A stretch of DNA of 11,456 nucleotides from a virus. Lineage: Duplodnaviria > Heunggongvirae > Uroviricota > Caudoviricetes. Shown here in pieces: positions 1 through 11,456 of the stretch. A program made the translations under genes and the position numbers. The stretch covers positions 1-11,456 of IMG/VR virus record IMGVR_UViG_2671180770_000008; one strand, 5' to 3'. Numbering within the stretch: the stretch's first letter is position 1; every line of letters begins with the position of its first letter. The notes under the pieces were generated by a model. It did not search any database. It saw nothing but the letters and a program-made list of their open reading frames with translations, and was not told where the DNA came from.

Positions 1-47
1 TACAGTCCTTTTTTCTCCAGACATTCTGCCACGTGATCATGTAGCAT
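1..47 (-). CDS. 5' end of an unidentified CDS running off the left edge (MLHDHVAECLEKKGL...)
   Basis: ATG at 47..45 preceded by GGAGG (RC of 54..58) with a 6-nt spacer; only 15 codons visible, product not recognisable. Confidence 0.4.
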   Translation of the reverse strand, partial: MLHDHVAECLEKKGL

Positions 48-101
48 AAGTGACCTCCGATTATCTACAGACTGCCATCCTGAATTTACCTTCCCTTAAT
101 G

Positions 102-199
102 AAATAACAATAAAAAACAAACCACACAAAAACAATAAAATAACACACAAAAAAAACTAAATAATAAACAAAAATAATCACCTTATTTTATTATTTTTT
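102..199. repeat. 98-nt G-free A/C-rich low-complexity tract in the AT-rich region upstream of the edge ORF
   Basis: Direct reading: no G on the plus strand from 102 to 199 (aaataacaataaaaaacaaaccacacaaaaac...). Confidence 0.7.
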
Positions 200-281
200 G
201 AGGGGGCAATTACTGAACAAAAAACGCTGACTATATACTCAAAACCAAACAACTATTCTGCCAATCAGGTATCATGGCAAC

Positions 282-303
282 ACACGGAATTACCGTGTTT
301 TTG
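282..303 (+). terminator. Candidate Rho-independent terminator on the plus strand
   Basis: Stem acacgg (282..287) / ccgtgt (293..298), loop aatta, then ttttt (299..303). Confidence 0.4.
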
Positions 304-512
304 CCTTCTCTGCCCATACAATACGGGCATATACTTCATACTCTATTGTAATATTTCTATCCATGCGCCCCACTCCATTTACCTGTAAATAATATTCAAA
401 ATATTTATCACAGAAATCGTTTTTGTCCATGAACTGAGCACACTATAAAGTCCGGAACTGACTCTTTGTTAAATTACCTTAACGTTACCAGTAACACCTT
501 CATAACAAAACA

Positions 513-980
513 TCACGGTATACACTGGGTACGGATATATTCCTGTGCTCCTTCCAGTTGCTTCTGCATTGCCATCAGCCGTTCTCTGAGGATGAAATAA
601 TCCCGTTCAGCGGCTTCTGCCAGTCGGGGACCGGTTGCATTATCCACGCCGGAGGTGATGGGGGCTTTACGCAAGGAGCCTGGACAGTTGGCGTTGATGC
701 GCAGGCGCTTACGACCAGCGGCAACATCAGCACGCAGAGTTTCATTTTCAGCTCTCGCATCGGCTAATTCCCTCGAGTATCTGGCATCAAGTGCAGCGAC
801 ATCACGCTGGCGTACCTGCATATCAGTAATTGTCACGTTCGCCAGCTTCAGCTCACTGGCTTTTTTATCGCGTTGCGCTTTGTAGGTAATGGCGTTATCG
901 CGGTAATGATTCAGCCCCAGACTAAGCACACCACAGGCTACCAGCAGGACAATAATCACCACACACAGAACACGGTTCAT
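513..980 (-). CDS. Rz: Rz i-spanin (inner-membrane spanin subunit)
   Basis: 155 aa; N-terminal TM segment then coiled-coil; strong similarity to lambda Rz as I recall it ([43 protein letters not shown]); ATG at 980 preceded by GAGGGGGA. Confidence 0.93.
575..760 (-). CDS. Rz1: Rz1 o-spanin lipoprotein, embedded in the +1 frame of Rz
   Basis: 61 aa; lipobox LVVSAC, proline-rich [26 protein letters not shown] closely matching lambda Rz1; entirely nested inside Rz. Confidence 0.9.
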
Positions 981-987
981 ATCCCCC

Positions 988-1119
988 TCACCCCACCAGC
1001 CATGACAAAGTTAAGACGCGCCAGGCAGTGGAAAAGCAAATAGCAACCAGCATTAGTGAAAATGAAATGCCGACGATTACACAGAGGATCTTCGCCAGCG
1101 TTATGAGCTTGTCTGACAT
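988..1119 (-). CDS. 43-aa small hydrophobic protein ([43 protein letters not shown]), unknown function
   Basis: ATG at 1119 preceded by AGAGGA plus 6-nt spacer; stop TGA 990..988 lies 7 nt before the Rz start; one predicted TM helix. Below the ORF-track size cutoff. Confidence 0.45.
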
Positions 1120-1131
1120 GCTTAATCCTCT

Positions 1132-1314
1132 TCACGATTTCAACGCAATGACCAGTTTTGCCAGCCCATACAGCATCGGAGACACAGCAATACCGACCGC
1201 CACCCACTTAATAGCAAAAGCCAGCGCTCTGCTGACGTCATCAGTTACAGGCGCTTTCAGTTCAAGGCCGTTTTTCATAGTCAATCTCAACAGAATTCGT
1301 TTATACTTTCCCAT
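1132..1314 (-). CDS. 60-aa small protein with C-terminal TM helix (MGKYKRILLRLTMKNGLELKAPVTDDVSRALAFAIKWVAVGIAVSPMLYGLAKLVIALKS), unknown function
   Basis: Internal ATG of track ORF 1132..1392; the longer N-terminal extension reads through a terminator hairpin and is rejected; AGGGAG-like RBS upstream; stop 12 nt before the next RBS. Confidence 0.45.
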   Translation of the reverse strand: MGKYKRILLRLTMKNGLELKAPVTDDVSRALAFAIKWVAVGIAVSPMLYGLAKLVIALKS

Positions 1315-1351
1315 GTTCTCCCTTGCCTTACTCAAGGTCAGAAACACAAAA

Positions 1352-1380
1352 CCCCGTTTGCGGCCAACAAACGGGGTTTT
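1352..1380. terminator. Bidirectional intrinsic terminator
   Basis: Perfect 9-bp inverted repeat ccccgtttg (1352..1360) / caaacgggg (1368..1376), 7-nt loop, A-tract on the left and T-tract on the right. Confidence 0.7.
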
Positions 1381-1469
1381 ACTTTTATTCACTTAGTTTT
1401 TGCCAGTTCGCAGGATTTCGTGTTATCCGCCCGCGTTGGCCAACGTCATTTTTCAGCAAAATATTCTGC

Positions 1470-1860
1470 TTATCTGTCAATTCCCCAGCACGCCAGTGCA
1501 CTTTCCTGGTCTCGCCGGGATACCTGGCCGTAGCAATTATTTGAGCGGATACGGCAGTCTCTGCCACCGTCCTTAATCCACCAGCGAATCGCTTCGCAGG
1601 CACCTTTTCGATCACCTGCATTAATCCGTCTGTAAAACGTAGACGGGAAACACTTACCGGGGCCAATGTTATAAGGACAAAATGACGCGATACCCGCCTT
1701 CTGGGGTTCGGTCAGCGGTACTTTAATATTGCGCTCCACCCACTCCAGCGCCTTATCACGTTCAATGGCGTTACCCACCAATTTCCGGTGCCACAGTAAC
1801 AGTAATCTTATCCGGGTAATTATTTATCCCTTTAACAACCAGTTCGTATTTTTTCTTCAT
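1470..1860 (-). pseudogene. Disrupted endolysin: C-terminal ~100 aa of a GH24 phage lysozyme (RrrQ / Stx-phage R type) joined out of frame to an unrelated 29-codon ORF (MKKKYELVVKGINNYPDKITVTVAPEIGG)
   Basis: Frame 1470..1781 encodes NAIERDKALEWVERNIKVPLTEPQKAGIASFCPYNIGPGK...GACEAIRWWIKDGGRDC...ALACWGIDR, matching the C-terminal half of lambdoid lysozymes; there is no SAR/signal segment or catalytic Glu-Asp-Thr region; the ORF starting at 1860 (good RBS GGGGAGAG) stops at 1773..1771 in a different frame. Confidence 0.7.
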
Positions 1861-1864
1861 CGCT

Positions 1865-2080
1865 TTACTCTCCCCGCGCCGCCTTACGACGGTCCTCTCT
1901 GATTTTGAAATACAGGTTAGTCAGATACGTCAGCAGGCCAAACAGCAGACTCCCCAGCACACCTATCGCCACCCACTGGGACGGAGAGACTTTGTCCAGC
2001 AGCTGCAGTAACCAGTATCCCGTCCCCACCGCTGACGTGGTGTATGACACACCTGTTGTGATTTTTTCCATCTGGTACAT
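1865..2080 (-). CDS. S: Class II holin (S21-type pinholin), 71 aa, with dual-start motif
   Basis: [10 protein letters not shown]...[40 protein letters not shown] closely matches phage 21 S / EssD-EssQ holins; Met1 and Met4 dual start; RBS GGGAGA upstream. Confidence 0.92.
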
Positions 2081-2155
2081 ACCCCGTCTCCCGCAATCCG
2101 GAAGCTCACAACAACAGGAGGGGCATCAGCTCACACCGACAGCCCCTGCGTATGG

Positions 2156-2425
2156 TTACATCATCATTTCGCCGCCAGGCTGAGGCTCACTGCTACCGTC
2201 AGGCTGAGACACAACGCCATCTGAAACAGCACTGTCACCCGCGCCGTCTTCAGGCTCAGGAGCAGCCGGTCCCCCCAGCAGCTCATCCAGAATGGCATCC
2301 ACTTCAGCATCAAGACGCGCCTCAAGATTCTGGCGGAGTTGCTGTTTCAGTGCGCTTCTGACTTCTTCAGAGCGCAGGACGTCCTTCACTGCTTCAGCAG
2401 TGACCAGAGATTTTATTTCTGACAT
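2156..2425 (-). CDS. Hypothetical acidic protein, 89 aa (MSEIKSLVTAEAVKDVLRSEEVRSALKQQ...)
   Basis: Internal ATG of track ORF 2156..2581; the upstream extension overlaps the better-supported 60-aa gene in another frame; weak RBS. Confidence 0.5.
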   Translation of the reverse strand: MSEIKSLVTAEAVKDVLRSEEVRSALKQQLRQNLEARLDAEVDAILDELLGGPAAPEPEDGAGDSAVSDGVVSQPDGSSEPQPGGEMMM

Positions 2426-2462
2426 GGGATTTTCTCGTTGAAAGGTGTTGTTAAGAAAGTTG

Positions 2463-2645
2463 CTACGAAATGAGAGGCTCTTCGGGTTTTGTTCCGGCTG
2501 ACTGGCTGGCGCTGATTTTTTCCGCCGCCGCGGCATCAATCTTTTTGCGTATATAGTTCCGGATAACCTTATACCCGCCACTTACCAGATATAACGTGCA
2601 CACCACCGTGCAGAAATACAATAAAATAAGCTGTACAAATCTCAT
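2463..2645 (-). CDS. Small membrane protein, 60 aa (MRFVQLILLYFCTVVCTLYLVSGG...)
   Basis: ATG at 2645 preceded by GGGAGG; hydrophobic N-terminal helix. Confidence 0.55.
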   Translation of the reverse strand: MRFVQLILLYFCTVVCTLYLVSGGYKVIRNYIRKKIDAAAAEKISASQSAGTKPEEPLIS

Positions 2646-2739
2646 TATCCCTCCCGGTTATTGATATGGTGTTGACATCGTTAATACCTGTTGGTTAAAA
2701 AAGTGTCCTGCATGTTTTGCTTTGGATATAACGACATTT

Positions 2740-2787
2740 GCCGCCGGTTCTGGCTCCTTGTTTTCCCTGCCCCGGCGGCCTTTTTTT
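2740..2787 (+). terminator. Intrinsic terminator on the plus strand (antisense to the late operon)
   Basis: 8-bp GC stem gccgccgg (2740..2747) / ccggcggc (2772..2779) followed by ttttttt (2781..2787). Confidence 0.55.
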
Positions 2788-2792
2788 CCTGC

Positions 2793-4730
2793 TTACGGGT
2801 TATTCACTTCCACTGTTATACTTTCAATCAGCACCGGATATGTCGCACCGCTAGTGATATCGGTCACGCGCAATTTGTCTGCCGTAAACGTGCCGACCGG
2901 TGACTGTGACAGCATGAACGGCGTCCCGTCCTTACCATCAATGACCGGCGTCACCTCAATACTGTTGTTACCGGCAAAACGGAAGCCCAGCGTATGCCAT
3001 TCGTTATCAAATGCGCCGAATGACCCCAGCTTCGTGTTCTGACCAGCATTTCCCTTGTGGTACATCACATTAAGGTCTGTGGCATCGCTCTGTACGTAAA
3101 ACGACGCCAGCAGGTTATGACCGGCATTACCTTCCAGTGTGACGCCCTGAGGCAGTGAAGAAACCGGCCAGTACAGCGCCAGTGCGTACTGATTAGCTGT
3201 CAGTGTGCCATCAACTTTAAAACGACAACTGATAAGCCCGCCCTTCTCCAGCAGGTCTGCGCCATTACCGGCATCATGCTGCATAAACCACGAGGAACTT
3301 CCTGTCTGTTTGGTCCACCTCAGCGCCTTACCTCCTGCAGCACCTGCATCATCAACTACCAATGCACGCCCTCCTTCAGCTCCCCATCCCTGCGGATTCA
3401 GTAAACCACCTGACTCTGTTGCACGGTAATAAAGCAGCGTTGTCACTGATTTCCCGTCCGTTGACGGTGTTGATGGTGTGTCCGGTGACGGCTTCTCATC
3501 CGGCGGCATCACAACCTGTTCCCCACCCACCAGTTCAGCCGTCCGTCCTGCATGGAGAAGAATCGCTGAGGCAAGACGGTCAGAAATAATCCCCCTGCGT
3601 GCCCATGAGCTGAAATGGCTCGCACGGTCTGCTGACGTCCAGTTTGCCGACGTCCGGGAGGCCGCACCGTAATATCCTGATGCCGGAATATCCGGGTCTT
3701 CTTCCGGTTTGTTCGTCGGGACATTTGCTCCGTTCTCATCGGTCATGAACGGCACAAAGTGAATATTCTTTTCCGTTTTGTTTTTGTAACTGCCGTACAC
3801 CGTCTGGTAAGTGGATTCGCTCTTCTGCTTCCAGAAATAAGTTGTGTCTCCACATATCCAGGGAACACCGTCAGCAGAACCACCAGCGCACTGTCCCACC
3901 ATATCTGCAAGGTCCGTACGATATTGTTCCACTACTTCTGTAAAACGGGCTGTGTGATTTGCTGGCGTTCCGTCAAAGTCAAATTCCCCCTGCATCCACA
4001 CCACGGCAAGCAGCACATTTTTCGGGTTCTTTGCCAGCGCGGCTTTTGTACGACCGATGAGATCCTTATACAGCGGCCTGCCCACACCCCAGCGGGTATA
4101 ACTCTCTGAGGCACCGGTCACGTCACTGTATGTTCCATCTGCCCCGGTGGTGAAAGCTGAACCACCACGGCAGCACGGAACCAGAAGAATACCCGCATTC
4201 GCCGGTATAAACGGCAGCAGCTTTTTGGCAATATGCAGCCCGTGCCCCACGGTTCCGTACTGACCTTTCGACAGGTCAGCTTTCGGATGGTTAAGACGGC
4301 TCATGTCCTGTACATCATGCAGACAGTGGTCTGCCGGAATAATGTCGTTATATTTACAGGGAGCGCCATCCGGCGTCACTGTGCTGCGACGAGCCAGTTG
4401 CTTTATACGCGGGTCAGGACGGTCATATGTCTGCGGCAGAGGAAGCCCCTCACCGTAAGCCATGCCGTTCGACTGCCCGGCCAGTGGAATAACGTAGTAA
4501 TAATCTGGCTCCGTGGTGACCACTCCCGGATAGCCACCATCCCCCGTGCCGGGCACAACCACTGGCGTGGTCACATCCCCCTCCGCGGCAATCGCCTGCA
4601 TCAGGGTATAAGGGGTTATGGCCACAGGACTACCAAACGGCTGCCAGCCCTCTTTCAGTTTGTGTGTCAGCTTTTCCGCAAGATCTGACGGCGACGCCGC
4701 CCTGACAACATCATAATGTTTAATCGACAT
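2793..4730 (-). CDS. nanS: NanS-p-type prophage sialate O-acetylesterase, 645 aa
   Basis: Strong RBS GGGAGA; N-terminal MSIKHYDVVRAASPSDLAEKL... segment, esterase-type motif YYVIPLAGQSNGMAYG, size and position (between Q and S) as in the NanS-p proteins of E. coli O157 prophages. Confidence 0.88.
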   Translation of the reverse strand: MSIKHYDVVRAASPSDLAEKLTHKLKEGWQPFGSPVAITPYTLMQAIAAEGDVTTPVVVPGTGDGGYPGVVTTEPDYYYVIPLAGQSNGMAYGEGLPLPQTYDRPDPRIKQLARRSTVTPDGAPCKYNDIIPADHCLHDVQDMSRLNHPKADLSKGQYGTVGHGLHIAKKLLPFIPANAGILLVPCCRGGSAFTTGADGTYSDVTGASESYTRWGVGRPLYKDLIGRTKAALAKNPKNVLLAVVWMQGEFDFDGTPANHTARFTEVVEQYRTDLADMVGQCAGGSADGVPWICGDTTYFWKQKSESTYQTVYGSYKNKTEKNIHFVPFMTDENGANVPTNKPEEDPDIPASGYYGAASRTSANWTSADRASHFSSWARRGIISDRLASAILLHAGRTAELVGGEQVVMPPDEKPSPDTPSTPSTDGKSVTTLLYYRATESGGLLNPQGWGAEGGRALVVDDAGAAGGKALRWTKQTGSSSWFMQHDAGNGADLLEKGGLISCRFKVDGTLTANQYALALYWPVSSLPQGVTLEGNAGHNLLASFYVQSDATDLNVMYHKGNAGQNTKLGSFGAFDNEWHTLGFRFAGNNSIEVTPVIDGKDGTPFMLSQSPVGTFTADKLRVTDITSGATYPVLIESITVEVNNP

Positions 4731-4816
4731 CGAATTTCTCCCGTGTACAGGAACAGAGTTAAAAAGCCGGAACCGGAATCAAATCACAGGATGACCATCT
4801 GCCAGTGGCTGGTCGT

Positions 4817-4843
4817 AAAAAAAAGGCCGCGCCATGCGCAGCC
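4817..4843 (-). terminator. Intrinsic terminator on the minus strand, upstream of nanS-p
   Basis: Minus-strand RNA GGCUGCGCAUGGCGCGGCC (8-bp stem, 3-nt loop) followed by UUUUUUUU (RC of 4817..4824). Confidence 0.7.
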
Positions 4844-5044
4844 GGAAATAAAGGGATAACGATGATAGTTTGAGAAAAACAGAAATAACACTTTTGTGGC
4901 AAAGCATGGTGCCGGGTGCCTCCCGGTGAATTCAGTACCAGCACCTGAATCCGCGATTATCCCATATACCTGGTTGCTGATTGCCCCTCCGCACAGGGGG
5001 ATTCACCATGCAGTAGTATTTTTAATAAACAGTAAACAAAAAAA

Positions 5045-5212
5045 TCAAGCATTATGCAGGCTGTTTCTTTTTATCACCGGCCACAGCAATACCACAATGC
5101 CGCAGACCAGCCCCCCATCCGCCAGCACCGACATGATTCTGCTGGTGAAATCCACCATCACCACCAGAAACAGCAGGAGTGCAGCCACAGCCAGGCGCAG
5201 TTTTACCGTCAC
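5045..5212 (-). CDS. 55-aa small membrane protein (VTVKLRLAVAALLLFLVVMVDFTSRIMSVLADGGLVCGIVVLLWPVIKRNSLHNA), GTG start overlapping the TerB-like stop
   Basis: GTG 5212..5210 overlaps TGA 5211..5209 (GTGA); GGAG 8 nt upstream; two hydrophobic stretches. Below the ORF-track cutoff. Confidence 0.4.
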   Translation of the reverse strand: MTVKLRLAVAALLLFLVVMVDFTSRIMSVLADGGLVCGIVVLLWPVIKRNSLHNA

Positions 5213-5680
5213 AGGTGATTCTCCAGACGAAGCCCCAGAACACCGGCAATCTCTTCCAGCACCTTGCGCTCTTCCGGCTCAATTTCGCCGTCTGCCTCCG
5301 CAATGGCCACCGCCACATCCAGCACATCTTCCGCTTCACGCGTATCGTGTTTCACATCCTCGATCTCACGTAACGCCGCACGACGACCAATTTTAAAGTT
5401 CGTATCCAGCTGACCGATAATGGTTGCGCTAATCGCATTAATTTCTGACGTAAACGCGGACAGCGCTGGCTGATTACGCAGTACCTGTTCGATCTTCGCT
5501 TTCTAGGAAGCCTCACATTCACCATCTGCACAGGCCACCAGGTATGCGGCGTTAATCACCGTCTGTGCCAGATCGCGTTTCTCAAACTTTCCTTTTTCCG
5601 GTTAACGTGACACACCAATAACTCTTGTCGAAAAAGCCAGCAAGCTGAAAGACCGGTATTCACAACCACCAGCGCGTTTA
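5209..5680 (-). pseudogene. TerB-family (tellurite-resistance TerB-like) gene disrupted by an in-frame amber codon and a 5' frameshift
   Basis: Frame 5601..5209 encodes ...EKGKFEKRDLAQTVINAAYLVACADGECEAS*KAKIEQVLRN...DVLDVAVAIAEADGEIEPEERKVLEEIAGVLGLRLENHL with TAG at 5505..5503; the N-terminal part (..GFFDKS..) sits in another frame; no usable start codon. Confidence 0.55.
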
Positions 5681-5704
5681 CTGTACTGGCGTGATTTCAG
5701 TCAT

Positions 5705-5727
5705 AAAAAAACCCGCCTGGCGACGGG
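5705..5727 (-). terminator. tR'-like terminator of the short pR' leader transcript
   Basis: Minus-strand RNA CCCGUCGCCAGGCGGG (6-bp stem, 4-nt loop) followed by UUUUUUU. Confidence 0.75.
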
Positions 5728-5763
5728 TGTAAAAAATCTTCTAACGTCAGGCATAAAACGCCC

Positions 5764-5803
5764 ATCGTTAGGGCAAATTTACCACAGATTCGGGAAAAAT
5801 CAA
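5764..5803 (-). promoter_or_regulatory. pR'-like late promoter with qut / pause element
   Basis: On the minus strand: -35 TTGATT (5803..5798), 16-bp spacer, -10 TAAATT (5781..5776), then TGCCCT AACGAT GGG, closely resembling my recollection of the lambda pR' -10 / pause region (GGGTAAATTTGACTCAACGATGGG); starts directly after the Q stop codon. Confidence 0.7.
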
Positions 5804-5808
5804 CAAAG

Positions 5809-6630
5809 CTATCTGGTCACCTTTTTCAGTTGTTGTTCTGCCCATGCTTCTTCAATATCAAACTGCACCACCAGCGTATCGTAAAAACGTTTAACTGTTT
5901 TTTTCCATGTATCAAGAGATATGGCATCGGTTACATTACATATGGCATTAAATGCCTCCGTTGAAGGTAATCTTTCATAGCCACGACCACCACAACGCTG
6001 GCAGTCTCTGATAACAGGCATACCACGTTTTACCGACTCTTCACGATGAATGGCAACACCGCGCCCACGACAATCTTTACAGGCGGTGGAAACCTCCCCC
6101 TTCCCTCCACACTCCGGACAGGCAACTTTTACCACCTCCCTGACTTTTTTCCATTCCTCCCAGTAAGACGGATACACGCCTTTTGTGCACTTTGCCCACA
6201 CTGGCGGCTTACCATCCGGATACTGGATCTTGTTTGTAAAAACCTCGCTTTCAATAAATTTTTTTCCGTGACAACAGGGGCACTGTTTTTTGCTCGCCGC
6301 GCTACGGGCATAATCTTCAAACGCATACGAAGCCATAATACGCATCACTGCCGGTTTTATTTCTGCCGGGAGTTTTTTTAACGCCGCCACGCGATCACAC
6401 CGACTGAGTGCATATTCTGTCAGCAATTCTGTTGCCCGCTCTCTGTCATTCATACTAATGCCCATTTTCCCAAGGAACGCAGAAAACCCCATCTCAGCCC
6501 AATTCTGTGTCATGCCCTGCGCGGCCATCACATCAGTGATACTCAGCGTATCTTTCGACGTTGAGGCCGATGCATCAGTCAGGCCGGGGGATTTTGGGGA
6601 GTAGTATTTCGGTAAATCTTCCAGTTTCAT
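5809..6630 (-). CDS. Late-gene antiterminator Q (Q-like, zinc-binding), 273 aa
   Basis: Immediately upstream of the pR'-like promoter; several CxxC pairs (CPCCHGKK, CPECGGKG, CKDCRGRG, CQRCGGRG); position equivalent to quuQ / quuD. Confidence 0.8.
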   Translation of the reverse strand: MKLEDLPKYYSPKSPGLTDASASTSKDTLSITDVMAAQGMTQNWAEMGFSAFLGKMGISMNDRERATELLTEYALSRCDRVAALKKLPAEIKPAVMRIMASYAFEDYARSAASKKQCPCCHGKKFIESEVFTNKIQYPDGKPPVWAKCTKGVYPSYWEEWKKVREVVKVACPECGGKGEVSTACKDCRGRGVAIHREESVKRGMPVIRDCQRCGGRGYERLPSTEAFNAICNVTDAISLDTWKKTVKRFYDTLVVQFDIEEAWAEQQLKKVTR

Positions 6631-7001
6631 TTTTTGACCTGCCCTCCAAGCATTATGGGGTAAATCTTCACCCCCAGACGTCCACCAGATACTGGCTGAG
6701 CACGAACGATATTGATTTCATCAAACTGCTCATCGTCCATTAGCAACCCCGCATGCGTCAGCGCATCCAGCGGCGCTTTCAGAATATTGTCCAGGTCACG
6801 GCGGCGCTTATCCGGTGGCTCGGCAATAATCTTTATCGCCAGCCTTCCGGACAGGCTTAATTTCAGCCGCTGCTGGCGAACAATAAGCGCCACAGCCCGG
6901 CGATAACGCTCACCGGCTTTTGATACAAAATATGTGCTGCCACGACGTCGCCAGTAGGTGTTCACCGTCGGCGGGTAAAGCAAAACAAACTCTATACGCA
7001 T
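6627..7001 (-). CDS. rusA: RusA-family Holliday-junction resolvase
   Basis: PDKRRRDLDNILKAPLDALTHAGLLMDDEQF and SGGRLGVKI align with E. coli RusA ([40 protein letters not shown]); RBS GAGG; stop overlaps the Q start (ATGA). Confidence 0.92.
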   Translation of the reverse strand: MRIEFVLLYPPTVNTYWRRRGSTYFVSKAGERYRRAVALIVRQQRLKLSLSGRLAIKIIAEPPDKRRRDLDNILKAPLDALTHAGLLMDDEQFDEINIVRAQPVSGGRLGVKIYPIMLGGQVKK

Positions 7002-7013
7002 CAGTAACCTCTT

Positions 7014-8063
7014 TTACCCGAGCACGCCGGTTGCAAAGGCGTGATCAAGAAAACGAAAAATTAAATCAACCTGGGAACCATGCTTTTCTTCGAACGCCAG
7101 CGGATCCGCATGAAGCTCGTTGTGATGCTCCCGACACAGCGGTAGCGTGAAAATATCGTGGGATTTTGTTCCCATTCCGCCCTGACCATGACCAATCAGA
7201 TGATGAGGATCGTCCGCTGGCTTACCACAACACGCACACGGCTGTGTCTTTACCCAGCGTGTGTATTTCTCATTTACCCAGCGGCGACGTTTAGGTCGTT
7301 TCATGAAGGATTCCGGAGACTCCGGATCAACGGCAATGCTGACCACCGTCTTTTCCTGTGGTGGGTTCTGTTGCTGGTGGGTGTGAGACGGTAGCGCAAT
7401 ATTTTTTGTGCGCTGCTTCAGTATGCTGGTGGCGGTCTGTTCTCCCGGTATGATGTCGCTTTCACGGTATACGGAGCGGATTTTTTCCGCACGCAACCCC
7501 AGCGAAAGACGTAATACCGCTTCCGGTAGCGCGTCCGCCACCTGATTGCGGACCGCCCACCAGGATAATTCAGCCAGAGATAATTCACGCTCCTGTGCGC
7601 CATTCATTGCGTGACGGATGATGTCAATCATCCAGGCGGCCAGATTCTGTTGAGCAAGTTGATCCAGTGAATCAGATGTCTGCTCCCGCAGCTGGTTGTC
7701 GCAGTGCCAGCACAACACCATCGCGCCGGTACCGTAACGGTGAATGACGGTTTCGCTGTGATGATAATCACCGTGTAGCCACTGGCAGGATTTCACGTGA
7801 CGTAATAACCAGTCAGACAGTGCACCAGCGCCACCCGCAGCACGGATCACCCGCTCATCGCTGAAAAATGGCAGTAGTGATTTATCTTCCGCCAGCGGCT
7901 GGTGAACGGCAGGTACAACCCCGGACGGCAGAGCTCGCATGCTTTTTGGTTCCGGCTCCACCAGTATTCTGCCGTTATGGAATGCTGACATTGATTCACG
8001 GCCTGGCTTAACGATAACCAGACCGAGTTCCGGTACCAGAACAGGTCGAAGTAATACCCGCAC
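7014..8063 (-). CDS. DUF968-family prophage protein (YdfU-like) with C-terminal HNH-like Cys/His motif
   Basis: 349 aa, position as ydfU in Qin (rem - ydfU - quuQ); motif CACCGKPADDPHHLIGHGQGGMGTKSHDIFTLPLCREHHNELH; GTG start 8063 with GGAGG upstream, overlapping the upstream stop. Confidence 0.65.
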   Translation of the reverse strand: MRVLLRPVLVPELGLVIVKPGRESMSAFHNGRILVEPEPKSMRALPSGVVPAVHQPLAEDKSLLPFFSDERVIRAAGGAGALSDWLLRHVKSCQWLHGDYHHSETVIHRYGTGAMVLCWHCDNQLREQTSDSLDQLAQQNLAAWMIDIIRHAMNGAQERELSLAELSWWAVRNQVADALPEAVLRLSLGLRAEKIRSVYRESDIIPGEQTATSILKQRTKNIALPSHTHQQQNPPQEKTVVSIAVDPESPESFMKRPKRRRWVNEKYTRWVKTQPCACCGKPADDPHHLIGHGQGGMGTKSHDIFTLPLCREHHNELHADPLAFEEKHGSQVDLIFRFLDHAFATGVLG

Positions 8064-8064
8064 A

Positions 8065-8343
8065 TTACCTCCAGATCCGTTGCTGGAATGTGCGGGACGG
8101 ACGCGGTGGCCGTTCGGAGTAAGGGAGCCTGACGGAGATTATCCAGTGACGGTAGTCGAGGCTAAGGGCTTTTTTAACCTCGCATCCGCGCCTGCGGTAA
8201 CACTGAATGAGCCATTCGGCCTGTTCTTCAGTGCATGGGGGATGCTGGTACCAGTCAGATTTGAATGCGTGAAAACACCGTCCGCGCCTGCTGGCAAAGA
8301 CGGCAGAATCATCAGAATTGTATAATTTGGTATCGTGCGCCAT
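8065..8343 (-). CDS. Hypothetical Cys-containing protein, 92 aa, in the position of rem
   Basis: Internal ATG of track ORF 8065..8424 (MAHDTKLYNSDD...); the longer extension would read through the hok terminator. Confidence 0.5.
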   Translation of the reverse strand: MAHDTKLYNSDDSAVFASRRGRCFHAFKSDWYQHPPCTEEQAEWLIQCYRRRGCEVKKALSLDYRHWIISVRLPYSERPPRPSRTFQQRIWR

Positions 8344-8415
8344 CGGTTGTCTCTGCTGGCGCAGCAGGTGCCAGTTGTTCAGGCTGGCGTGCGAATTGTA
8401 AACCAGAATGCCAGG

Positions 8416-8440
8416 AAAAAACAAAACCCGCCGAAGCGGG
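8416..8440 (-). terminator. Intrinsic terminator at the 3' end of the hok mRNA
   Basis: Minus-strand RNA CCCGCUUCGGCGGG (5-bp stem, UUCG loop) followed by UUUUGUUUUUU. Confidence 0.7.
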
Positions 8441-8510
8441 TTAAGTGCGGGTGCGTTGAGGATGCCTGATTCATCAGAGGTGGCGAGGGATTTCTCCCTC
8501 GCCGGGTCTC

Positions 8511-8666
8511 TTACTCCTCAGGTTCGTAAGCTGTGAAGACAGCGACCTCCGTCTGGCCGGTTCGGATTCGTACCTCGCAGAGGTCTTTCCTCGTTACCAG
8601 TGCCGTCACTATGACGGTTAAACAGATGACGATCAGGGCGATTAACATCGCCTTTTGCTGCTTCAT
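8511..8666 (-). CDS. hokD: Hok-family type I toxin (HokD/RelF-like), 51 aa
   Basis: MKQQKAMLIALIVICLTVIVTALVTRKDLCEVRIRTGQTEVAVFTAYEPEE, which I recall as identical or near-identical to E. coli HokD; RBS AAGGAG 9 nt upstream. Confidence 0.9.
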   Translation of the reverse strand: MKQQKAMLIALIVICLTVIVTALVTRKDLCEVRIRTGQTEVAVFTAYEPEE

Positions 8667-8871
8667 AGCCTGCTTCTCCTTGCCTTTCGGCACGTAAGAG
8701 GCTAACCTACATGTGTCTAGCATGAAATTGACCTCAGATTAATGTTAGGCGTCTTGCAGGACGCGTAATGTTAACTGGGGCTTTTCTCTGTCTGCCTTTT
8801 GGTGTTCATGCCTGAGGCAGATAGCCTCAAGCACCCGCAGCAATTCTACTTAACTCTCGCTTTACAGCAAA
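8667..8871 (-). promoter_or_regulatory. hok mRNA promoter and leader: -10 TAGAAT (8848..8843), tac-like hairpin, mok-like upstream reading frame (ATG 8723) in frame with hok
   Basis: Leader UUGAGGCUAUCUGCCUCA... parallels the plasmid R1 hok 5' end; the 5' element (RC of 8825..8840) is complementary to a 3' element at 8445..8461 (fbi-type long-range pairing). Confidence 0.6.
8715..8790 (+). ncRNA. Putative Sok-like antisense RNA (approximate extent)
   Basis: Plus-strand promoter candidate TTGCCT (8680..8685), 17 bp, TAACCT (8703..8708); transcript would be antisense to the mok-like start/RBS; no clean terminator found, 3' end uncertain. Confidence 0.25.
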
Positions 8872-8882
8872 CCGTTTTTACC

Positions 8883-8904
8883 CGATATGGGAATTCCCAT
8901 ATCG
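8883..8904. repeat. 22-bp perfect palindrome CGATATGGGAATTCCCATATCG
   Basis: Direct reading; centred on GAATTC; between the 34-aa ORF stop and the hok promoter -35. Confidence 0.8.
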
Positions 8905-8912
8905 TAATGAAT

Positions 8913-9017
8913 TCAGTTCCCTAGTCGATCCATCAAAAACACAACCAGGCAGTAAACGCCCACAACAGCAACAACAGCCAGCGCACCTTCCATTGCCAGT
9001 GAGATATCATCCGACAT
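8913..9017 (-). CDS. 34-aa small hydrophobic peptide (MSDDISLAMEGALAVVAVVGVYCLVVFLMDRLGN)
   Basis: ATG 9017 preceded by AAAGGAGGG with a 4-nt spacer; single predicted TM helix; verified codon by codon. Below the ORF-track cutoff. Confidence 0.45.
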   Translation of the reverse strand: MSDDISLAMEGALAVVAVVGVYCLVVFLMDRLGN

Positions 9018-9052
9018 ATTCCCTCCTTTGGTGTTAATCCCGGCGAACGTTT

Positions 9053-9136
9053 TTACCCCCACCGACAAATAACATATACTAAAAAAGCGATAGCCATAGC
9101 AACGCCTGTAATTGCAAATGCTTCAGGCCAGTTCAT
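9053..9136 (-). CDS. 27-aa small hydrophobic peptide (MNWPEAFAITGVAMAIAFLVYVICRWG)
   Basis: ATG 9136..9134 overlaps the TGA stop of the upstream DUF551 gene (ATGA); GGAGG 7 nt upstream; single TM helix. Confidence 0.45.
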   Translation of the reverse strand: MNWPEAFAITGVAMAIAFLVYVICRWG

Positions 9137-9717
9137 TGGCGCACCTCCTGCGGCGGTTCTGGTAGCGGCATCCAGTCGGTTACATTGCGGCTCTGTGTTT
9201 CGAAAAATTCATCACCATCACGGACTACATCAAAAAACTCACCGTCTCGATATTGCGCATAAAGAACGAATGCGCCATCACATAAAATAATTACGTGCTG
9301 ACCGTCATCCGGCATTCGCTCACTACAGCTTATCCAACCATCCAGAGTTACCGGATAGTTGGTTGACGTTTCCGAGATTTCCCGAAAATTATTGGTTGAC
9401 GAACCCTTCTTTTCCCGAAAGTTTCCAGCCTGAAGCATGGCGGCGCTGTCTGGCGGGGCAGCATATAGCGGCACGTATATTTCCGGTTCCTTATCAGCAC
9501 CGGGTTGCTCTTCCAGTGAGAATGTCTTTCCGGTAAATCGATTCATATAAAGCACGGGCTCTGCTTCCAGCGAAGCCTGAGCAACAAGGGCCAGTGCTAA
9601 ATCCAACTCAATTGCCTCGAGAGAATTTTTGAATGCTGTCTGTTTTACTGCAAATTTCATCGCCTTTACATTTTCACTAACATGACTGATTAACTGCTCT
9701 TTTGTAAAAGTGGTCAT
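9133..9717 (-). CDS. DUF551-domain phage protein, 194 aa from ATG 9717 (alternative GTG start at 9777)
   Basis: C-terminal DUF551-like signature WISCSERMPDDGQHVIIL...DWMPLPEPP; AGGAG RBS 6 nt before ATG 9717. Confidence 0.7.
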   Translation of the reverse strand: MTTFTKEQLISHVSENVKAMKFAVKQTAFKNSLEAIELDLALALVAQASLEAEPVLYMNRFTGKTFSLEEQPGADKEPEIYVPLYAAPPDSAAMLQAGNFREKKGSSTNNFREISETSTNYPVTLDGWISCSERMPDDGQHVIILCDGAFVLYAQYRDGEFFDVVRDGDEFFETQSRNVTDWMPLPEPPQEVRQ

Positions 9718-9773
9718 CTCATTCTCCTTTGATGCGAATGCCAGCGACAATTGAAGCCTGATAGCTAATTCAC

Positions 9774-10169
9774 TCACAATACCGCCTCCTGAAAATTGCC
9801 CTGATAGAACGCCAGTACACGCAGCATAACTTCACTCTTCCGGCACTCGCCACAGATTATGTTCTGTTGTCTGTCGTAGCGGTGTATTTCTCCGTCTGGT
9901 AACTTTCGAATCAATGTCTGGTCGGTTGTTTTCTCCGCTGCCTTACGCCATACGCGATACACCTGTTCTGATGTAAAAACACCGTATTTACCGGGCATGT
10001 ATAAATTGCCGCAAGCCAGTACATCCACAAGGCAACGTCTGACTGAATGCCAGCCTGCTCCCGTCGCTCTCTCCAGTTGTGATATCGTCATGCGTTCATT
10101 TTTGCGTACCAGCCCGATAATTCGGGCCTTCAGTTCTTCACGCTGTTCGTGTGTAAAAGGTTTCGCCAT
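9774..10169 (-). CDS. Hypothetical protein, 131 aa, with predicted N-terminal HTH-like segment
   Basis: ATG 10169 with GGAGG at a 5-nt spacer; RMTISQLERATGAGWHSVRRCLVDVL resembles an HTH; function not recognised. Confidence 0.7.
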   Translation of the reverse strand: MAKPFTHEQREELKARIIGLVRKNERMTISQLERATGAGWHSVRRCLVDVLACGNLYMPGKYGVFTSEQVYRVWRKAAEKTTDQTLIRKLPDGEIHRYDRQQNIICGECRKSEVMLRVLAFYQGNFQEAVL

Positions 10170-10184
10170 AAGCGCCTCCGGCTA

Positions 10185-10910
10185 TCACTTTTCCGACACA
10201 ATACGACCGGATGAATCGACAATCTGCCGAACAATATCCCAGTGCTTGTTCAACTCCCGCAGCGCGGCGCAGACTCGCTCCCACTTCTGAACCTGACCTT
10301 TTGCTCGGCGCAGCTCGCGGTTAGCCACATGCAGCGATGGTAGAATCAGGTCATCTGCTTTCGTTTCAGTGAACGATTGCTGCAACTTCACAATGTCCTC
10401 CACCGCTTCTGTTTTAATTTCTTCCTGTGCAGCCGTTTCCTGGACTGGTAACGCAACACCTGCTGGCTGAGGAAGGGCTTTACCCTCCGTTTCAGCTACG
10501 GATGCAGCTTTCTGCTCTGCCGGTAAATCAACGCCCGGTATGCAGTAACGAAATTTACCATCCTGATTCACGCGAATCAGACGCCCTTTGCTGATTGCCA
10601 TTGCCAGCGATGAATTCGCACGGCGGGAGGTAATTCCGAACATCAATGCCAGCTCATCCGCCGTTTGTGGGCCATGATGTTCAATCGCCTCAGTCAGCAT
10701 TTGCGCTGTCACTTTCGGTACCGGTGACACTGGTTCACTTTCACCAGTCTGAGTCAGCCACCACATCGACCCCTTGTTATCCGCTTCACCACGGCGCTTC
10801 AGTTTCCACAGTTCGTTGACAGCATCTTCGCGGCTGATTCCAAGGCGCGATGCCACTACCTGTGAAGAGGCTTTTTTCAGTGCTTTCAGTGCGTCAAATA
10901 CAGTTTCCAT
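10185..10910 (-). CDS. Hypothetical protein, 241 aa, with two winged-helix-like segments and an acidic linker
   Basis: ATG 10910 (METVFDALK...) preceded by GGAGGA; track ORF begins 6 codons earlier at a TTG; function not recognised. Confidence 0.7.
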
Positions 10911-10931
10911 TAAAACGTCCTCCAACAAAAA

Positions 10932-11456
10932 TTACTTCACAACCCTCTGATTGCTGACATTTGGACGCCAGCTATCCCAGTTAAACGTCACCCATCGACC
11001 ACCGCTCATGGTCATCCGGTCCATAATCCTCTCACCAAGAAGCGTGCTCATTGCGGCATGATTCAGGTTTGTTAACATCCCGACACTGCACAGTGATGCT
11101 GTCCGGCGATCAATTATCTGGTGTAATACCACCTGCTCGTTTTTCGTCTCCCGCTGAACGCCTATTTCATCCAGGACCAGCAAATCAACCCCGCAAAGCT
11201 CCTGTAAAAATTTTTCCCCGGATTTGCCGTTGTCGTAGCTGTCATGCAACACGCTCATGACATCAGACACGGTGACGATAATCACGCTGCGCCCCTTCGC
11301 CATCAGCCGGTTACCCATCGCCGCTGCAAGGTGATTTTTCCCGGTGCCGGTTTTACCGCTGAACACAAAATTCGTGCACCCGGTCATCAGTTCGTCAGCT
11401 ATGGATTTGGCCTGGCTCAGCGCGTATTTTTGCCCGTCGTTCTGCACCTGATAATT
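10932..11456 (-). CDS. DnaC-like helicase loader / replication protein (IstB-type AAA+), C-terminal part; N-terminus beyond the window
   Basis: Walker A GKTGTGKNHLA, Walker B LLVLDEIG, and tail GERIMDRM...WVTFNWDSWR align with E. coli DnaC (GPVGTGKTHLA, LLVIDEIG, GERVMDRM...WVIFNWDSYR). Confidence 0.9.
   Translation of the reverse strand, partial: NYQVQNDGQKYALSQAKSIADELMTGCTNFVFSGKTGTGKNHLAAAMGNRLMAKGRSVIIVTVSDVMSVLHDSYDNGKSGEKFLQELCGVDLLVLDEIGVQRETKNEQVVLHQIIDRRTASLCSVGMLTNLNHAAMSTLLGERIMDRMTMSGGRWVTFNWDSWRPNVSNQRVVK

Follow-up and report, generated by a model that had tools for sequence, protein, structure and literature searches.

A promoter–terminator cassette in the esterase–lysis gap of prophage Sp6 matches the published Hfq-bound small RNA EcOnc33 and points to arcA as a candidate target

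What occupies the gap that separates the sialate esterase gene from the lysis genes in an Escherichia coli O157:H7 prophage? We analyzed an 11,456-nt stretch of a Caudoviricetes genome (IMG/VR record IMGVR_UViG_2671180770_000008, positions 1 to 11,456; hereafter, the window). The window is prophage Sp6 of E. coli O157:H7 Sakai (NC_002695.2), with which a 161-base segment enclosing the element studied here shares 100% identity. According to the Sakai annotation, the genes follow the order Q antiterminator, nanS-p, ECs_1528 (DUF1378), DUF826, holin S, endolysin, antirepressor, and Rz, and all of them, from Q to Rz, lie on the minus strand of the window. The DUF1378 gene is the first gene of the lysis-side block, and the gap between ECs_1527 (nanS-p) and ECs_1528 holds no annotated feature in the Sakai annotation. 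It is in this gap that a sequence-only reading, made without database searches, had proposed a small RNA of about 80 nt on the plus strand, transcribed from its own promoter and convergent with nanS-p. Transcription of such an RNA opposes the late transcription of the phage.

Rfam searches returned no family over 2672-2787, whether the gathering score or a cutoff of E up to 10 was applied. Two weak snoRNA matches were discarded as noise, and the tRNA scan detected none. Two further Rfam matches are noted here as observations on the window. An STnc100 match (4871-5037, minus strand, 101.6 bits) lies just downstream of the Q gene, is accompanied by a terminator-like hairpin (4843-4825, minus strand), and occupies the position of the PR′ leader or PasD-like sRNA, so placed that STnc100 and EcOnc33 flank nanS-p as PasD2 and PasA flank the esterase gene in EPEC E2348/69. 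A sok antitoxin match (8661-8836, minus strand, 113.5 bits) adjoins the annotated mokC/hok gene of Sp6.

All the signals named in the sequence-only reading are present in the gap, namely a TTGACA at 2672..2677, a −10 within 2695..2701, and an 8-bp GC stem followed by T7 within 2740..2787. We assessed how readily such a combination arises by chance by means of a custom scan for perfect G/C stems of at least 8 bp followed by at least T6, and for TTGACA placed 16–18 nt from a −10-like hexamer; as the control, we generated 300 random sequences of matching composition with a first-order Markov model. The window contains exactly one terminator-type and one promoter-type site, which share a strand and are correctly ordered, and the TTGACA at 2672 is the sole TTGACA in the window paired with a −10-like hexamer at that distance. 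Of the random sequences, 0.7% contained the terminator type and 34% the promoter type, and not one combined the two. Generic scans listed neither element: the promoter was missed because its −10 lacks the final T, and the hairpin because its 24-nt loop exceeds the 8-nt limit of the terminator scan. The coordinates of the features are collected in Table 1.

Table 1 Features of the EcOnc33 locus in the window.
Feature	Position	Strand	Basis or remark
−35 hexamer TTGACA of the EcOnc33 promoter	2672..2677	+	read directly in the sequence
Predicted −10 hexamer TAAAAA, 18-nt spacer	2696..2701	+	sequence and conservation
Alternative −10 TTAAAA, 17-nt spacer, TG at 2692-2693	2695..2700	+	sequence
Published Hfq-CRAC peak (old Sakai 1557089-1557136)	2701..2748	+	mapped via CLASH reads
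EcOnc33 sRNA, ~81 nt predicted	2707..2787	+	probe match, Table S2, 5′ ends of CLASH reads
5′ single-stranded seed region CUGCAUGUUUUGCUUUGGAU	2708..2727	+	EcOnc33 half of CLASH chimeras with arcA and ECs0890
Terminator hairpin: 5′ arm GCCGCCGG (2740-2747), loop (2748-2771), 3′ arm CCGGCGGC (2772-2779)	2740..2779	+	sequence, fold, chance test
Loop motif CTTGTTTTCCCT	2757..2768	+	identical in all EcOnc33-type variants
T7 run of the intrinsic terminator, after C2780	2781..2787	+	sequence
nanS-p (ECs_1527, 9-O-acetyl-N-acetylneuraminic acid deacetylase)	2793..4730	−	ORF list and Sakai annotation; convergent with the sRNA
DUF1378 gene (ECs_1528)	2463..2645	−	ORF list and Sakai annotation; divergent from the sRNA promoter

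The promoter reads as a sigma-70-type promoter (TTGACA, 18 nt, TAAAAA), and about 40 nt separate its −10 from the terminator hairpin. The stem of the hairpin comprises 8 bp, all of them G/C, and closes a 24-nt loop that contains a 3-bp inner helix. Folding of 2700-2790 gave −29.3 kcal/mol (z = −3.9), a value equaled by none of 200 dinucleotide shuffles. Read on the minus strand, the hairpin has AAATGTCG after it in place of a T-run, and it therefore should not stop late transcription. Sequence, fold, chance test, and the conservation described below together provide what is expected of an Hfq-type trans-acting sRNA at the gene level: a promoter of its own and a Rho-independent terminator with a 3′ U-tract. 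The U-tail at the 3′ end of an intrinsic terminator is a typical Hfq binding site.

This small RNA had already been published in 2014, under the name EcOnc33. By crosslinking Hfq to RNA in strain Sakai, Tree et al. (Mol Cell 55:199; PMC4104026) obtained 63 orphan Hfq-bound sRNA candidates, and Northern signals were seen for 17 of the 18 candidates tested. Their Table S2 places EcOnc33 in prophage Sp6, at chromosome position 1557089-1557136 on the minus strand, with an Hfq-CRAC peak in 5/5 datasets, a Rho-independent terminator flag, the 8th largest peak area of the table, and a Northern band of ~71 nt; the Δhfq stability column of the table has no entry for EcOnc33, which appears only in the supplementary tables, with no function assigned (PMC4104026). 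The published Northern probe, AAATGTCGTTATATCCAAAGCAAAACATGCAGGAC, matches 2705-2739 of the window on the minus strand with 0 mismatches and has no other match in the window. Since the probe is minus-strand sequence, the RNA detected is a plus-strand RNA. The published tables use an older version of the Sakai sequence, in which a coordinate equals 1559837 minus the window position, as two CLASH reads with stated coordinates agree in showing. Converted in this way, the Hfq-CRAC peak spans the 5′ part of the RNA through the first terminator arm.

The CLASH reads begin at CCTGCATG, that is, at C2707. The 5′ end is accordingly placed by two indicators, the spacing from the −10, which predicts a start near 2707-2708, and the 5′-most base of the CLASH reads; with a 3′ end within the T-run, the predicted length would be ~78-81 nt. 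As the Northern band is ~10 nt shorter than this prediction, either one end is misplaced or the RNA is trimmed. The plus-strand RNA of 2707-2787 is almost certainly EcOnc33, an sRNA of Sp6 of ~70-80 nt, and the exact probe match together with the Northern band bears out the convergent RNA of about 80 nt that had been predicted. The existence of EcOnc33, its size close to the predicted one, and its binding to Hfq in vivo have been shown by others. In a full-text search, the name EcOnc33 was absent from main texts, and no function was discussed in the searchable papers. Later EcOnc papers concern HnrS (EcOnc10-12) and EcOnc27, which are other RNAs.

We then asked how widely the element is conserved. 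Among 5426 complete E. coli genomes, 363 carry a relative. Identity is at least 99% in 309 of them, mostly O157:H7 and O55:H7 with some O45, O103, and O121 strains, and 60-95% in the other 54. The hairpin is also carried by 55 IMG/VR prophage contigs. A distant blastn search of the INPHARED phage collection and a search of the GTDB species representatives for the hairpin pattern gave no match, and within the collections searched E. coli genomes and IMG/VR prophage contigs were the only carriers of the element. Conservation of promoter and terminator in related prophages had been set beforehand as a point on which the sequence-only reading could fail; both proved to be conserved. TTGACA and TAAAAA at 17-18-nt spacing persist across ~20 EcOnc33-type variants despite indels. 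A subfamily with an 11-nt deletion (L100, L103, L096, L110, and similar loci; corresponding to window 2660-2740) has lost the original −35, and in it a TTGACA is restored at the right spacing from upstream ATTGACATGG. In the same subfamily, the seed-like motif GCAT(N)TTTTGCT is duplicated in tandem.

The terminator shows a comparable constancy. A run of at least 6 T is present in all ~20 EcOnc33-type variants and in nearly all of the wider sample described below; at locus L129 of that sample the run is interrupted (CTCTTTTT). The stem of EcOnc33-type (type-1) relatives is invariant except for a G-C to G-U change at the outer pair, an invariance that is uninformative for pairing, part of the sample having been selected by stem sequence. 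Within the loop, the motif CTTGTTTTCCCT is identical in every EcOnc33-type variant, and its neighbors vary, including a 5-nt indel (CTGGC) at 2750-2754. The motif is C/U-rich and predicted to be single-stranded. It may constitute a second interaction site, one that would lie outside the reach of a model built on the 5′ seed.

What might such an RNA act upon? From a start at 2707, the predicted fold leaves the 5′ 33 nt essentially unstructured, the remainder being the terminator. Waters et al. (2017, PMC5286369) applied RNase E-CLASH to the same strain and obtained RNA-RNA chimeras associated with RNase E. Their Table EV7 lists EcOnc33-ECs5359 with 5 unique hybrids, a small number, among which both replicates and both ligation orders are represented. 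The target coincides with an Hfq site; the interaction has an FDR of 2.7e-4 and a score of 5.4, which is among the higher ones of the EcOnc-mRNA pairs. ECs5359 is arcA. In the chimeric read, ATTTAGGTAGCAAACATGCAGACC is joined to CCTGCATGTTTTGCTTTGGAT, and the halves correspond to arcA −15 to +9 (Sakai) and to window 2707-2727; the arcA fragment is the true start region of the gene in Sakai. Complementarity comes in three stretches: sRNA CUGCAUG with arcA CAUGCAG, in which the start codon lies; UUUGCU, set off from the first stretch by a single bulged U, with AGCAAA; and UUGGAU with AUUUAG through G-U wobbles. The predicted duplex between the seed and the arcA start-codon region has an energy of −19.0 kcal/mol, which 0.25% of shuffled seeds equal. 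When the 5′ 33 nt of the sRNA were used, the arcA start was the best site from −100 to the stop codon, at −22.8 kcal/mol. A duplex of the full-length sRNA with arcA was discarded as unrealistic, for it ignores the sRNA's own terminator structure.

Two traits of a trans-acting Hfq-type sRNA, complementarity of the seed to a target mRNA and contact with that mRNA in vivo, are thus both represented at arcA, by the −19.0 kcal/mol duplex and the chimeras, respectively. A second partner in the CLASH rows examined is ECs0890, with 2 hybrids that involve the same 5′ region of the sRNA. Its read translates to LIDHLDTMAERAV, which we take to be Dps. The predicted pairing with arcA is weaker in variants of the seed (−14.4 kcal/mol in the HH35 type and −9.3 kcal/mol in L020), and arcA may therefore be a target of the O157 allele only, or incidental.

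These observations suggest the following model. EcOnc33 would be transcribed from its own promoter, end at the intrinsic terminator, and associate with Hfq, for which the terminator hairpin and U-tail would provide the handle. The RNA would act in trans by base pairing via its unstructured 5′ end, CUGCAUGUUUUGCUUUGGAU. Pairing over arcA −15 to +6 would hide the start codon, so that the expected effect is repression of ArcA synthesis; recruitment of RNase E at arcA is a possible addition. ArcA is a global aerobic/anaerobic response regulator. Trans action through the 5′ end is what we infer from the unstructured seed and the chimeras, and the direction and size of any arcA regulation are likewise inferred. 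Taken as a whole, the reading of EcOnc33 as an Hfq-associated, trans-acting sRNA with a 5′ seed and with repression of arcA as a candidate outcome appears very probable. The arcA translation start region is the best-supported candidate target, and we put the arcA step itself forward tentatively.

The gap that holds EcOnc33 is also of interest in other prophages. We built an unbiased sample from 80 loci with DUF1378 relatives, which yielded 36 distinct upstream sequences, 30 of which were scored. All 30 carry a perfect GC-rich hairpin followed by a T-run of at least 5, and 29/30 carry TTGAC(A/T)-17/18-TAAAA(A/C/G) in the same place and orientation. The lengths of the RNAs predicted from these cassettes range from 74 to 94 nt. 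Alongside the EcOnc33 type, a second body type occurs in the slot, with the stems CCGCCAG/CTGGCGG, CCGCCAGC/GCTGGCGG, CCGCCAGCG/CGCTGGCGG, or CCGCCAGT/ACTGGCGG. The stems of this second type, of EcOnc33, and of PasA/PasC differ from one another by compensatory changes (G-C to A-T, C-G to T-A, and C-G to A-T). Such differences, confined to comparisons between cassette types whose homology is plausible, not proven, support the predicted hairpin and a putative shared scaffold.

Two observations on individual cassettes may be added. The second type is found at L139 and at other loci among L113-L146, ~230 nt upstream of the DUF1378 gene on the opposite strand. It consists of TTGACA, 17-18 nt, TAAAAA, a body such as CCAGAGCACGAAAGTATCGTTCCTTTATTTTTTCTCCATAGGTAT, a stem CCGCCAG(CG)/(CG)CTGGCGG, and T7-8; it has no EcOnc number in Table S2 of Tree 2014 (PMC4104026), and no reads from it were present in the portion of the CLASH tables searched. 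In prophage PP2 of E2348/69 (L001 2362-2645, minus strand), the PasA locus is made up of two tandem promoter-body-terminator cassettes, the second of which corresponds to the EcOnc51/52 reads of EHEC and explains the minor PasA species of 236 nt; a slot can thus contain more than one cassette.

By position, the closest relatives of EcOnc33 are PasA/PasC of EPEC E2348/69 and EcOnc51/52 of EHEC (Pearl Mizrahi et al. 2021, PMC8550237; Zhu, Shabalina and Storz 2026, bioRxiv 10.64898/2026.05.13.724894). Like PasA/PasC, EcOnc33 lies between a sialate esterase gene and the holin/lysis genes, is convergent with the esterase gene, and has an STnc100/PasD-like RNA across that gene. PasA/PasC are Hfq-associated RNAs of 79-85 nt, similar to EcOnc33, and share with it a TTGACA promoter with an A-rich −10 and a terminator with a GC-rich 8-9-bp stem, an unusually large loop, and T7. 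In contrast, the transcribed sequences do not align; similarity is weak (z = 2.3-3.9) and limited to the promoter. The terminator arms differ as well (GCCGCCGG in EcOnc33 versus AGCCAGC(A/G) in PasA/PasC), the seed assigned to PasA is part of the terminator stem, in contrast to the 5′ end that takes part in the EcOnc33 chimeras, and the gene downstream of the slot is DUF1378 in the window but the holin gene in E2348/69. Because the PasA/PasC family is defined by blastn similarity, EcOnc33, whose body and terminator arms differ from theirs and yield no alignable sequence, was rejected as a member of it.

These comparisons raise the idea that the slot harbors a single kind of module. Between nanS-p and the lysis genes, a fixed promoter/terminator scaffold would carry a swappable seed, and PasA, PasC, EcOnc51/52, EcOnc33, and the undescribed second type would be variants of it. 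The combined proposal, in which EcOnc33 is a prophage repressor of ArcA synthesis and at the same time one allele of a hypervariable lambdoid (Stx-type) sRNA cassette, is possible, if doubtful. A precedent for the arcA part is HnrS (EcOnc10/11/12; bioRxiv 10.1101/2025.11.27.690950), a prophage sRNA from the same screens that represses hha by base pairing, so that a host global regulator is already on record as the target of an EcOnc sRNA. HnrS differs from EcOnc33 in sequence, to which it is unrelated, in locus, and in target.

The same arrangement of the slot bears on a different explanation, in which the RNA serves in cis, as an antisense or interference element for the late operon that, in lysogens, damps or cuts nanS-p read-through into the lysis genes. 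All of the RNA is complementary to the late transcript, within the interval from the nanS-p stop to the DUF1378 start. Because its terminator is active on one strand only, late transcripts have to traverse the sRNA gene. Every DUF1378-linked prophage sampled keeps this position and orientation, and PasA and PasC sit in the corresponding slot. However, the sRNA overlaps neither coding region, nor does it reach the ribosome-binding site of the DUF1378 gene (2650-2656). Between prophages, the cassette body is hypervariable in contrast to its flanks, a pattern that fits target-switching trans regulators better, and Hfq binding together with chimeras formed with chromosomal mRNAs indicates trans action. 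We consider the cis explanation unlikely as the main function; a cis role would nonetheless be compatible with a role in trans.

Trans action could also be directed at other small RNAs. EcOnc33 might be an anti-sRNA, or sponge, that mainly titrates a core-genome sRNA in the manner of AgvB and AsxR (Rfam RF02702 and RF02703), which were described for the same organism in the same study, are borne by prophages of the same kind, and are likewise short, Hfq-bound, and convergent with late-operon genes, in the case of EcOnc33 a moron gene. Yet EcOnc33 resembles neither family in sequence, with no match to RF02702 or RF02703 at gathering score or at E up to 10, and it is without the conserved 42-nt 3′ domain that characterizes AgvB/AsxR, RNAs of 51-60 nt. 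The slot differs too: AgvB/AsxR are located upstream of nanS-p, by the moron insertion site between PR′ and a conserved phage ORF, whereas EcOnc33 is downstream. Moreover, the CLASH table rows examined gave mRNA partners and an intramolecular hybrid, and no sRNA partner. A sponge of this kind therefore seems improbable, and pairing of the 5′ seed with an mRNA is the preferred reading.

That the motifs arose by chance without any RNA, as the 34% of random windows that contain a TTGACA followed by a weak −10 might invite one to think, or that the 70-codon ORF beginning at 2691 encodes a small protein, has next to no probability: a published Northern band and Hfq crosslinking contradict the former, as do the absence of the promoter–terminator pair from 300 random sequences and a conservation that persists through indels, and against the latter, ORF 2691-2903 on the plus strand, which had been judged probably non-coding from the outset, loses its TTG start in relatives (TTA in the HH35 type), has its frame broken by indels that are not multiples of three, and reads through the terminator with no stop before it.

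As a discovery, EcOnc33 adds nothing, since its publication in 2014 already included Northern and Hfq-binding data. It does provide a positive control, in that reading a sequence without tools recovered an experimentally verified sRNA that is absent from the RefSeq and Rfam annotations. The additions made here are modest: a promoter assigned and seen to be conserved despite an indel, a loop motif that does not vary, hitherto undiscussed CLASH chimeras confirmed to point at the arcA start codon, and an esterase-lysis gap that looks like a conserved sRNA slot with exchangeable bodies and seeds. If the module proposal holds, each cassette variant would plug a different host regulator into prophage control. 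The arcA link, if true, would add a new case of a prophage tuning host physiology via a master regulator of respiration.
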